The translations under genes and the position numbers were made by a program. Under the pieces are notes generated by a model. It ran no database searches. It had not been told where the DNA came from and saw only the letters and a list, made by a program, of their open reading frames with translations. Source: a virus (taxonomy: Duplodnaviria; Heunggongvirae; Uroviricota; Caudoviricetes). Taken from it: DNA of 44,739 nt. This document shows, piece by piece, positions 38,280 through 38,421 of the stretch; the stretch's first letter is position 1; each line of letters starts with the position of its first letter. The stretch lies in IMG/VR virus record IMGVR_UViG_2713896776_000002. One strand, given 5' to 3'.

Positions 38280-38421
38280 CGTGCTTCTCAAAGGCGCAGA
38301 TGTCTGCGCCTTTGGGGATGATTCCCAGCGCTGGGACATTTGCGATTCGATACCATCAATCAAATGCGGTATTGGCAAATCTGCCAACGTTGGCAGATCT
38401 AGAGCCACAGAACCGCTCAGC
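38280..38421. repeat. Cluster of four perfect palindromes (24, 14, 20 and 20 bp)
   Basis: aaaggcgcaga-tg-tctgcgccttt (38280-38303); tcccagcgctggga (38313-38326); atctgccaacgttggcagat (38369-38388); accgctcagcgctgagcggt (38402-38421). Confidence 0.8.

Follow-up and report, generated by a model that had tools for sequence, protein, structure and literature searches.

A palindrome array in a satellite-like transposon matches gene-internal palindromes of BcepMu-like phages and may gather binding sites for their DUF3102 proteins

Clusters of palindromic protein-binding sites and phage satellites that copy cis-acting sites of their helpers are both known. The ParB/Spo0J-parS, SopB-sopC and KorB-OB systems use palindromic sites that may be clustered and may lie in the gene of the binding protein itself; the first parS described in Bacillus subtilis lies within spo0J, and sopC of F comprises 12 repeats. 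Satellites of the P4-like, PICI/SaPI, PLE and PICMI kinds are small, have no mobility or virion machinery of their own, and carry helper-type cis sequences (cf. the mimicry of cos or pac) and a few morphogenesis-related genes. Here we describe a locus that shares these traits. It is an array of four palindromes in a viral sequence of 44,739 nucleotides (IMG/VR record IMGVR_UViG_2713896776_000002, Caudoviricetes; the whole stretch is hereafter called the window). The array lies in a satellite-like transposon, and its units match the palindromes found inside the DUF3102 genes of BcepMu-like transposable phages, the putative helpers. We rate it as a variant of the known site clusters and site-copying satellites, and there is a substantial chance that a transposable-phage satellite hoarding helper-specific docking sites is new in kind. 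In the reading that we put forward and give an even chance, judging from sequence comparisons, the palindromes would be parS-like sites for dimers of helper DUF3102 proteins, gathered as an array of multiple specificities.

A sequence-only reading of the window had described four consecutive perfect palindromes between positions 38280 and 38421. All four are real and were located at 38289-38431 (here and below, a hyphen marks the centre):

38289-38314, palindrome 1, CAAAGGCGCAGA-tg-TCTGCGCCTTTG; 26 bp, 12-bp arms, 2-nt spacer, centre not perfect
38323-38336, palindrome 2, TCCCAGCGCTGGGA (TCCCAGC-GCTGGGA); 14 bp, perfect
38379-38398, palindrome 3, ATCTGCCAACGTTGGCAGAT (ATCTGCCAAC-GTTGGCAGAT); 20 bp, perfect
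38412-38431, palindrome 4, ACCGCTCAGCGCTGAGCGGT (ACCGCTCAGC-GCTGAGCGGT); 20 bp, perfect

The first, taken before for a perfect palindrome of 24 bp with 11-bp arms, is a palindrome indeed, but a longer and imperfect one, and the fourth runs 10 bp beyond the end that had been assigned to the array. The core shared by palindromes 2 and 4 (CAGCGCTG) was confirmed, as was the location of the array just downstream of a minus-strand open reading frame (ORF) of 114 aa (38451-38795). The palindromes had also been called statistically unusual, and shuffling bears this out. Among 5000 shuffles of the region 38200-38450, none had as many as four palindromes whose arms reach 7 bp, and just 0.12% had one or more with arms of at least 10 bp. 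Seven palindromes in the whole window have arms of 10 bp or longer, where dinucleotide shuffles would lead one to expect 0.25, and three of the seven fall inside these 150 bp. The cluster is not a product of chance. Far outside the element, at 10341-10369, the window carries a 29-bp palindrome with 14-bp arms, TTATCAGCACCCAT-t-ATGGGTGCTGATAA.

The opinion that these are not canonical intrinsic terminators also stood: a pattern scan (GC-rich stem-loop followed by at least ∼5 U within 8 nt) called no terminator-like site in 38289-38431. The bases right after the four units are GGGG, CATT, CTAG and ATAC. No Rfam family matched at its gathering threshold anywhere in the window, and the sole resemblance in the array was a partial one, of palindrome 1 to the STnc40 terminator hairpin, on both strands, at 29 bits against a threshold of 45.

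Nearly every helper phage has one palindrome of this family, 20-30 bp long, inside the DUF3102 gene (gp10 of BcepMu) and directly before the transposase gene. In PhiKM, KP12, Phi06_2974B, BcepMu and phiE255 it is a single perfect palindrome of 26-30 bp at DUF3102 codons ∼116-126:

PhiKM, CCAAAACGCTCAGC-GCTGAGCGTTTTGG
KP12 and Phi06_2974B, CCAAAAGCGCAAGC-GCTTGCGCTTTTGG
BcepMu, TTCAAAAGCGGCGTT-AACGCCGCTTTTGAA
phiE255, CAAAACGGACAGC-GCTGTCCGTTTTG

Among 80 enterobacterial helper loci from IMG/VR, 76 have a palindrome at codons ∼116-125, in 28 variants, and in the distant phiSHP3 that position of the DUF3102 gene is occupied by an 18-bp palindrome of unrelated sequence. In the helper sites, 95% of the cells of the dyad are paired, compared with 30-53% in slid-register controls. 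Two-sided changes are seen in eight of the 14 pairs, and the double-change cells number 80, a count expected at 24±3.3 from shuffles and reached in 0 of 500 of them. The dyad symmetry is maintained by selection within a coding sequence, where the encoded peptide simply tracks the DNA sequence. An insertion or mobile mini-element in the helper gene was rejected as the origin of the palindrome, since the peptide [PS]K-x-x-A-L-x-x-LGK is present in all homologues. The helpers transpose with a Tn552/IS1604-type rve transposase and an AAA ATPase, and prophages of this type are present in 643 of 5426 complete Escherichia coli genomes (∼12%).

Two further observations concern the helper palindromes. 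IMG genome 2563366855 contains two helper-type prophages (L019 and L042) with different variants, CGCTCAAC and GCGACAAC; this single case is consistent with private specificities that would avoid cross-talk. In Pseudomonas phage Komp_PAO1_1 (L114, 33856-34851), the gene before the transposase gene is not recognisably DUF3102 by eye and contains, at codon 87, a palindrome of 19 bp, ACTGGTGAC-g-GTCACCAGT. To judge by this example, palindromes inside the gene ahead of the transposase gene may be more general in these phages.

The elements homologous to the one in the window (hereafter satellites; loci L001-L004 and L094-L112 were compared) carry arrays of 3-12 perfect units side by side, and of more when imperfect ones are counted, between the Gp27-like/toxin module and the gene of a ribbon-helix-helix (RHH) protein. 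Unit centres read CA(G/A)C-G(C/T)TG, the outer arms are mostly AAA...TTT, and most units lack a spacer and keep perfect symmetry to the centre. The units stand in syntenic order in Escherichia, Citrobacter, Enterobacter and Intestinirhabdus, and orthologous units are perfect despite two-sided substitutions. The window keeps the four left-most units, and the 114-aa gene occupies the place of the rest.

Ten of the 13 zero-spacer 7-nt half-site types of the satellites are among the 12 helper types (hypergeometric P = 6e-17, or 1e-7 with a very conservative universe), and an eleventh, GGACAGC, is found in phiE255. In blastn-short searches, the best match of every array unit was to a helper DUF3102 gene and to positions ∼345-375 only. 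These matches are 20-29 nt long and up to 28/28 identical, with no homology in the flanks. Array units and helper palindromes belong to one family, and this relationship is observed directly, as is the covariation of their arms. The four units in the window correspond to four helper types, GCGCAG, TCCCAGC, TGCCAAC and GCTCAGC. Palindrome 1 is unit 1 of the syntenic array and goes with the helper 'GCGCAG/GCGCC' types, with analogues in L039 and L072; its orthologues keep the dyad by two-sided changes, e.g., CTCCAAAAGCGCCAGC-GCTGGCGCTTTTGGAG in L004. The half-site of palindrome 2 occurs in helper loci L055 (CAAAAGTCCCAGC-GCTGGGACTTTTG) and L068, the best blastn-short match being positions 347-366 of the L055 gene. 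The half-site of palindrome 3, TGCCAAC, is present in eight helper loci (CAAATGTGCCAAC-GTTGGCACATTTG), and blastn-short aligned 20 nt at 95% identity to positions 353-372 in L062. Finally, GCTCAGC, the half-site of palindrome 4, is shared by every array-bearing satellite of the half-site comparison and by eight helper loci, PhiKM among them.

BLAST with the array found homologous satellites only, in 26 of 5426 E. coli genomes and at 1-2 places in each, and we therefore rejected REP-like dispersed repeats as an explanation. Fragments captured from helper genes were rejected as well, as there is no flank homology past 29 nt. A DNA-level search of a phage collection with the array gave no match, and a search of plasmids gave one, a satellite insertion including the array on a 191-kb Citrobacter conjugative plasmid (NZ_CP056186.1, 71837-72485), a possible route between species. 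In ∼24 complete ST131-type E. coli genomes (L105, L007, SK1144), a decayed satellite stands beside IS5. It has lost the Gp27 and tape-measure genes, yet its array, with ∼17 hairpins in 830 bp, is the longest of all those seen; a helper-type prophage is present in these genomes as well.

A comparison with homologues had been proposed on the grounds that compensatory changes would imply RNA structure. Such changes were found, but the conclusion does not follow from them alone. The mismatches of imperfect units have no strand bias (five are wobble-compatible on the plus strand, three on the minus strand, and four on neither). Two-fold symmetric recognition of double-stranded DNA fits better than recognition of one-strand RNA, because the centres are self-complementary, the mismatches are free of strand bias, and the helper site lies in a translated ORF.

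Protein-binding sites, one of the classes suggested earlier, are a leading candidate class. Of the possible binders, a ParB/KorB-like DUF3102 protein fits best, ahead of the neighbouring RHH, Mor and DUF3486 (Gp27-like) proteins that had been named. Operators of the neighbouring RHH and 114-aa regulators were rejected because another palindrome, TGATAAATATTTATCA, occupies that promoter and site-bearing helpers lack these regulators. We also rejected helper immunity operators, as the palindrome type is unlinked to the operator type between the repressor and ner-like genes (L012 vs. L068, L053 vs. L055). From the comparisons that follow we infer that the best candidate binder is the DUF3102 protein, above all that of the helper phages. 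The palindrome type associates most with nucleotides 228-400 of the DUF3102 gene, which comprise a hypervariable putative recognition helix and the site itself, and its association with the transposase gene is no stronger than background. In particular, the last residue of an R-[TVAI]-[AS]-x motif goes with the outer arm of the palindrome: x=Q (R-x-A-Q) with AAAAGCG in 17 of 21 cases, on five helix backgrounds, x=R (R-x-A-R) with AAAACG(C/G) in 10 of 11, and x=V (R-T-S-V) with AAATGTG in six of seven. The Burkholderia phages BcepMu (Q) and phiE255 (R) obey this rule.

The element in the window has a DUF3102 gene of its own:

39245-40006, plus strand, satellite DUF3102 protein of 253 aa, a paralogue of helper gp10

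Unlike the helper genes, it has no internal palindrome (none in 38897-40309). The AlphaFold model of the full-length protein gave only noise in Foldseek, and the core (residues 38-152) was modelled separately, with a predicted local distance difference test (pLDDT) score of 90.4. The best structural neighbours of the core are DNA-binding domains of the ParB family in complex with their palindromic sites, namely Spo0J-parS (4umk; Foldseek probability 0.96, template modelling score 0.58-0.64), SopB-DNA, P1 ParB-DNA and VirB-DNA, and its helix-turn-helix also superposes on the KorB-operator structure; the Foldseek scores are moderate, with E-values of 0.5-8. Profile searches gave no significant sequence-level link of DUF3102 to solved structures or to the Pfam ParB and KorB families. 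The core may be a DNA-binding domain of the ParB/Spo0J/KorB type, which we consider a good lead rather than proof. Literature searches on the BcepMu palindrome and on the function of DUF3102 found nothing relevant.

The array had been assigned to an ordinary prophage context. Its surroundings are instead a 7.75-kb satellite-like transposon without a transposase and with a BcepMu-like left end:

36986-44739, plus strand, satellite-like non-autonomous element of 7,754 bp, left end TGATTAGACATGAGATAAAT, right end ...CGCGCGGTGGATCA

Its ends were fixed by aligning the junctions from five insertion sites, and its last base (…GGTGGATCA) is the last base of the window, 44739. The termini are TGAT...ATCA. 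At 16 of 16 testable loci, perfect 6-bp target-site duplications flank TGATTAGAC...GG(T/C)GGATCA, and all targets are different. Copies with the same ∼7-8 kb architecture, their ORFs intact, occupy no fewer than 16 sites and occur in at least six enterobacterial genera (the element was seen in Escherichia, Salmonella, Citrobacter, Enterobacter, Cronobacter, Yersinia, and Intestinirhabdus). E. coli AW1.7 matches the region at 100% identity over 1.1 kb, and the flanks differ between the window, AW1.7, LR536431 (inside glvC), CX21 (between sbmC and dacD), and Intestinirhabdus alba. In the window, the element is inserted in a structural gene of a resident HK97-type prophage, where a 123-aa ORF (36617-36988) stops at the first TGA of the element; in AW1.7, the identical element disrupts the major capsid gene of a lambda-like prophage, and in LR536431 glvC is split by it. 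With TG...CA termini and fixed 6-bp duplications at many sites, as in DDE transposons, the element behaves as a non-autonomous transposon, and its mobility is directly observed. One metagenome-derived IMG/VR contig of 7,799 bp (L094, IMGVR_UViG_3300029165_000015) is a single copy of the element, from TGATTAGAC to GGTGGATCA. The assembly breaks at element ends in this contig and at the end of the window would be expected of an element present at multiple sites, or of a packaged one whose flanks vary.

Domain searches of the ORFs of the element turned up neither a transposase or integrase nor a large terminase subunit, portal or capsid protein. Its left terminus is nearly identical to the left end of PhiKM (TGATTAGACTTGAGATAAAT), an Escherichia phage of Bcepmuvirus, and because of this match to BcepMu-like phages and the lack of a transposase we see it as a satellite-like mini-transposon. 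Like phage satellites, it has no replication, mobility or virion genes of its own, carries helper-compatible cis sites (here, the left-end sequence and the palindromes) and retains a few genes related to morphogenesis (a TerS N-terminal domain, half of a protease, a scaffold-like protein and a tape-measure protein). By inference from these sequence features, it would be a satellite of BcepMu-like phages; satellite and helper prophage co-reside in E. coli SK1144 and IMG genome 2713896776. Unlike the described satellites, it relies on transposition, which leaves 6-bp duplications, and not on an integrase, its putative helper is a Tn552-type transposable phage, and it holds a panel of lineage variants, whereas the known ones copy one helper site. 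TG...CA termini and subterminal GAGATAAAT-type repeats are shared with mini-Mu and Bcepmuvirus derivatives, and Bcepmuvirus has homologues of the Mor, Gp27, protease, tape-measure and DUF3102 genes. However, the element is no random deletion derivative of the mini-Mu kind, as its architecture recurs from site to site, and it has modules that helpers lack (the RHH regulator, a candidate toxin/small RNA (sRNA) pair, and the palindrome array). In literature searches we found no description of satellites of Mu or BcepMu-like phages.

According to the reading that we favor, the array palindromes would be parS- or operator-like dyad sites for dimers of the DUF3102 helix-turn-helix protein. Each helper lineage would have a private pair of site and protein, encoded in the early operon just before the transposase gene, with arm sequences that differ by phage lineage and are matched to different recognition-helix sequences. 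The left module of the satellite would have gathered the array, each site copying the variant of another helper lineage. The array could then capture the DUF3102 protein that any active BcepMu-like phage makes early and, with its many specificities, serve as a decoy, a sensor or a platform for recruitment. DUF3102 is the putative binder, and both the binding and its effect are predictions.

Several observations weigh against this reading. The helix-arm association could reflect plain linkage or shared ancestry, as both lie within ∼100 bp. The four units in the window lack the AAAA/TTTT outer flanks seen in helper sites. In the two genomes with both partners, satellite units are near the site of the resident helper and not identical to it, differing at 1-2 positions per half-site (AAAAACGACAAC vs. 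AAAAGCGACAAC in SK1144, AAATCTGCCAAC vs. AAATGTGCCAGC in IMG genome 2713896776). Moreover, Pfam searches found no N-terminal CTPase (ParB/Srx) domain of ParB in either satellite or helper DUF3102 proteins, and therefore spreading or clamp behaviour is not to be assumed. Finally, satellites in Salmonella (L097, L098), Yersinia (L099-L101) and E. coli (L096, L109), at several insertion sites, have neither the array nor the Gp27-like gene nor the toxin module. Three of these (L097, L098, L109) were confirmed to be flanked by perfect 6-bp duplications, so the array is not needed for transposition and is accessory.

The resemblance to partition systems is thus confined to site recognition. We do not class the locus as one of them because the element has no ParA-like gene, a CTPase domain was not detected, and the array has many specificities, whereas a normal centromere repeats one. 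In addition, the host here is a transposable phage with no evident need for partition, and the sites, of 20-30 bp, exceed those of partition systems in length and are hypervariable from one lineage to the next.

Some of the same features can be explained by RNA. Units of this kind could be cis-acting hairpins, i.e., weak bidirectional terminators, insulators or 3′-end stabilisers downstream of the leftward RHH (and 114-aa) unit that shield the toxin/sRNA pair, while in helpers a single hairpin with UUUU would attenuate transcription into the transposase gene. The array is indeed 3′ of the RHH gene and the helper hairpin just upstream of the transposase gene, the units of most relatives look like an A-tract, a GC stem and a T-tract (e.g., CAAAAGCGCC...GGCGCTTTTG), the stems covary, and the array segment folds as RNA far better than shuffles do (z = -5.45). 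Yet the four units in the window have no T-tract and none was called terminator-like, elsewhere the T runs are just 2-4 nt and part of the stem, and no Rfam family matches. Self-complementarity of the loop is not required of a hairpin, but most units have it, being symmetric right to the centre; the unbiased mismatches and the position of the helper site in a translated ORF do not fit either, and the set of helper variants in satellites and the tracking of arm by helix are left unexplained. We consider cis hairpins unlikely. Pairing in trans is clearly less probable than that: a transcript of the array would serve as an antisense library of kissing hairpins against the helper DUF3102-transposase mRNA, tuning or blocking early expression. 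As a palindrome is its own reverse complement, either strand could pair, starting from self-complementary loops (GCGC or ACGU). This would account for strand-independence, for self-complementary centres, for stretches of up to 24-28 nt in which array units are identical to helper sites, and for a library of variants without protein co-evolution. Against it, a promoter scan called none for the array, helpers would have no reason to keep the palindrome, and neither the helix-arm link nor the ParB-like fold is explained.

Another binder has about the same low probability as cis hairpins. It could be a TerS, either the helper Gp27/TerS or the truncated Gp27-like protein of the satellite, at pac-like sites, or else the Tn552-type transposase or its ATPase at a transposition enhancer. 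SaPI and PICI satellites redirect packaging via TerS-related proteins, the array is found only in satellites with the gene for a Gp27 N-terminal domain, whose product shares 45% identity with the DNA-binding N-terminus of helper TerS, and the helper site adjoins the transposase gene. Still, transposase sequence does not track the palindrome type above background, and we found no matching half-sites beyond chance near helper ends, elsewhere in helper genomes or in the satellite. An enhancer required in cis was rejected, as array-less satellites occupy several sites with perfect 6-bp duplications. For the same reason the earlier suggestion of a recombination- or packaging-related site is unlikely in the form of a strictly required transposition site. 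The slimmest chance goes to an array with no function in the satellite, made up of relics kept perfect by quasi-palindrome correction (template switching) or of repeated, tolerated recombination with helpers. Dispensability for mobility, the highly variable number of units with many indels, and the replacement of two thirds of the array in the window by a cargo gene all favor such an explanation. It is at odds with the syntenic unit order across four genera, with orthologous units that stay perfect through two-sided substitutions, and with the persistence of perfect palindromes of 20-32 bp at about ten positions; the lack of helper flanking sequence argues against simple recombinational capture.

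Two other kinds of arrays invite comparison with the candidate DUF3102 sites. Repetitive extragenic palindromic (REP) sequences, their mosaic elements (BIME) and arrays of bidirectional terminators likewise consist of short GC-rich extragenic palindromes that cluster downstream of genes and vary in copy number. Unlike these, the array units are not dispersed in the genome, differ from one another, have perfect centres, and also occur in coding sequences of phages; to our knowledge, they are unrelated to the E. coli REP consensus. CRISPR arrays offer a logical analogy only, in that short sequences matching different lineages of a mobile partner or enemy stand side by side. Here, however, there are no spacer-separating repeats and no cas genes, the units are palindromes of shared architecture, and the satellite array has no sign of an acquisition mechanism.

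The remaining features of the element are as follows:

37126-37470, minus strand, Gp27-like protein of 114 aa, its match confined to the DNA-binding N-terminal part of Gp27, the small terminase of Mu
37724-37807, minus strand, candidate type I toxin ORF, 27 aa, hydrophobic, MKGFLQIAVIALKAIVAFIELILACLP
38055-38162, minus strand, candidate antitoxin sRNA of ∼108 nt, in tandem upstream of the toxin
38451-38795, minus strand, ORF of 114 aa with no assigned function, standing where the ancestral array had its right-hand two thirds
38846-38861 and 38881-38896, a perfect palindrome of 16 bp, TGATAAATATTTATCA, present twice and unrelated to the array family
38933-39124, minus strand, Arc/HicB-type RHH protein of 63 aa, divergent from the rightward operon
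40515-40889, plus strand, Mor activator
40932-41546, plus strand, N-terminal half of a Mu-type head protease
41548-42141, plus strand, coiled-coil protein of 197 aa (scaffold-like)
42174-44651, plus strand, tape-measure protein of 825 aa

The Gp27-like protein matches Pfam PF11985 over residues 7-55 and also phrog_426, and is 45% identical to residues 1-55 of PhiKM TerS; the tape-measure protein shares 70.6% identity with its PhiKM counterpart. The region 37724-38162, ∼95% conserved among satellites, looks like a type I toxin-antitoxin module, as judged from its layout. The candidate toxin gene has a promoter-like site (38031->38004), a terminator, and a 5′ untranslated region that includes 37880-37912, and the first 33 nt of the candidate sRNA (38162->38130) are perfectly complementary to this leader. 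The sRNA ends in a strong terminator (38087->38055), and its candidate promoter, read by eye, has a -35 box at 38198-38193 and a -10 box at 38175-38170, ∼90 bp from the array. No family match was found for the toxin, and the region has a weak, sub-threshold Rfam resemblance to OrzO-P and AgrB.

The ORF at 38451-38795 had no match in Pfam, PHROG, NCBIfam or PADLOC. It is missing from L003, L007, L102-104, L106 and L110-112, which have extra palindromes in its place, and in satellites without it the array begins directly after the RHH stop codon. The copies of TGATAAATATTTATCA overlap two promoter-like sites of this gene and are probably the operator of a cargo cassette that displaced most of the array.

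The left modules of satellites alternate between one with the Gp27 N-terminal domain, the toxin and the array, and one with a protein of 310-318 aa and a small ORF; the Gp27-like gene and the array are both present or both absent. This strict co-occurrence of array, truncated TerS domain and candidate toxin/sRNA pair suggests that they form an accessory module, which could serve for titration of an early helper regulator, for sensing of helper activity or for redirection of packaging. A further step, which we regard as doubtful, is that the array would be a broad-range reader of phage identity, covering at least 10 BcepMu-like lineages, whose occupancy switches on interference by the satellite (titration, redirection of packaging, or toxin-mediated abortive infection).

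The type of the palindrome could be used as a simple typing marker for BcepMu-like prophage lineages. The ∼7-8 kb transposase-less family apparently parasitises transposable phages, and we found no description of it in the searchable literature. If the array does read phage identity, it would be a protein-sensing, DNA-encoded memory of helper variants in an undescribed class of transposable-phage satellites. Binding of the palindromes by DUF3102 proteins would provide the first testable function for a widespread uncharacterised family that adjoins the transposase in BcepMu-like phages, and these proteins would be ParB/KorB-like ones that recognise a hypervariable palindrome inside their own gene. 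One mobile element would then hoard the cis-site variants of many lineages of another, which would bear on how satellites keep pace with diversifying helpers and on how the specificities of sites and proteins diversify.

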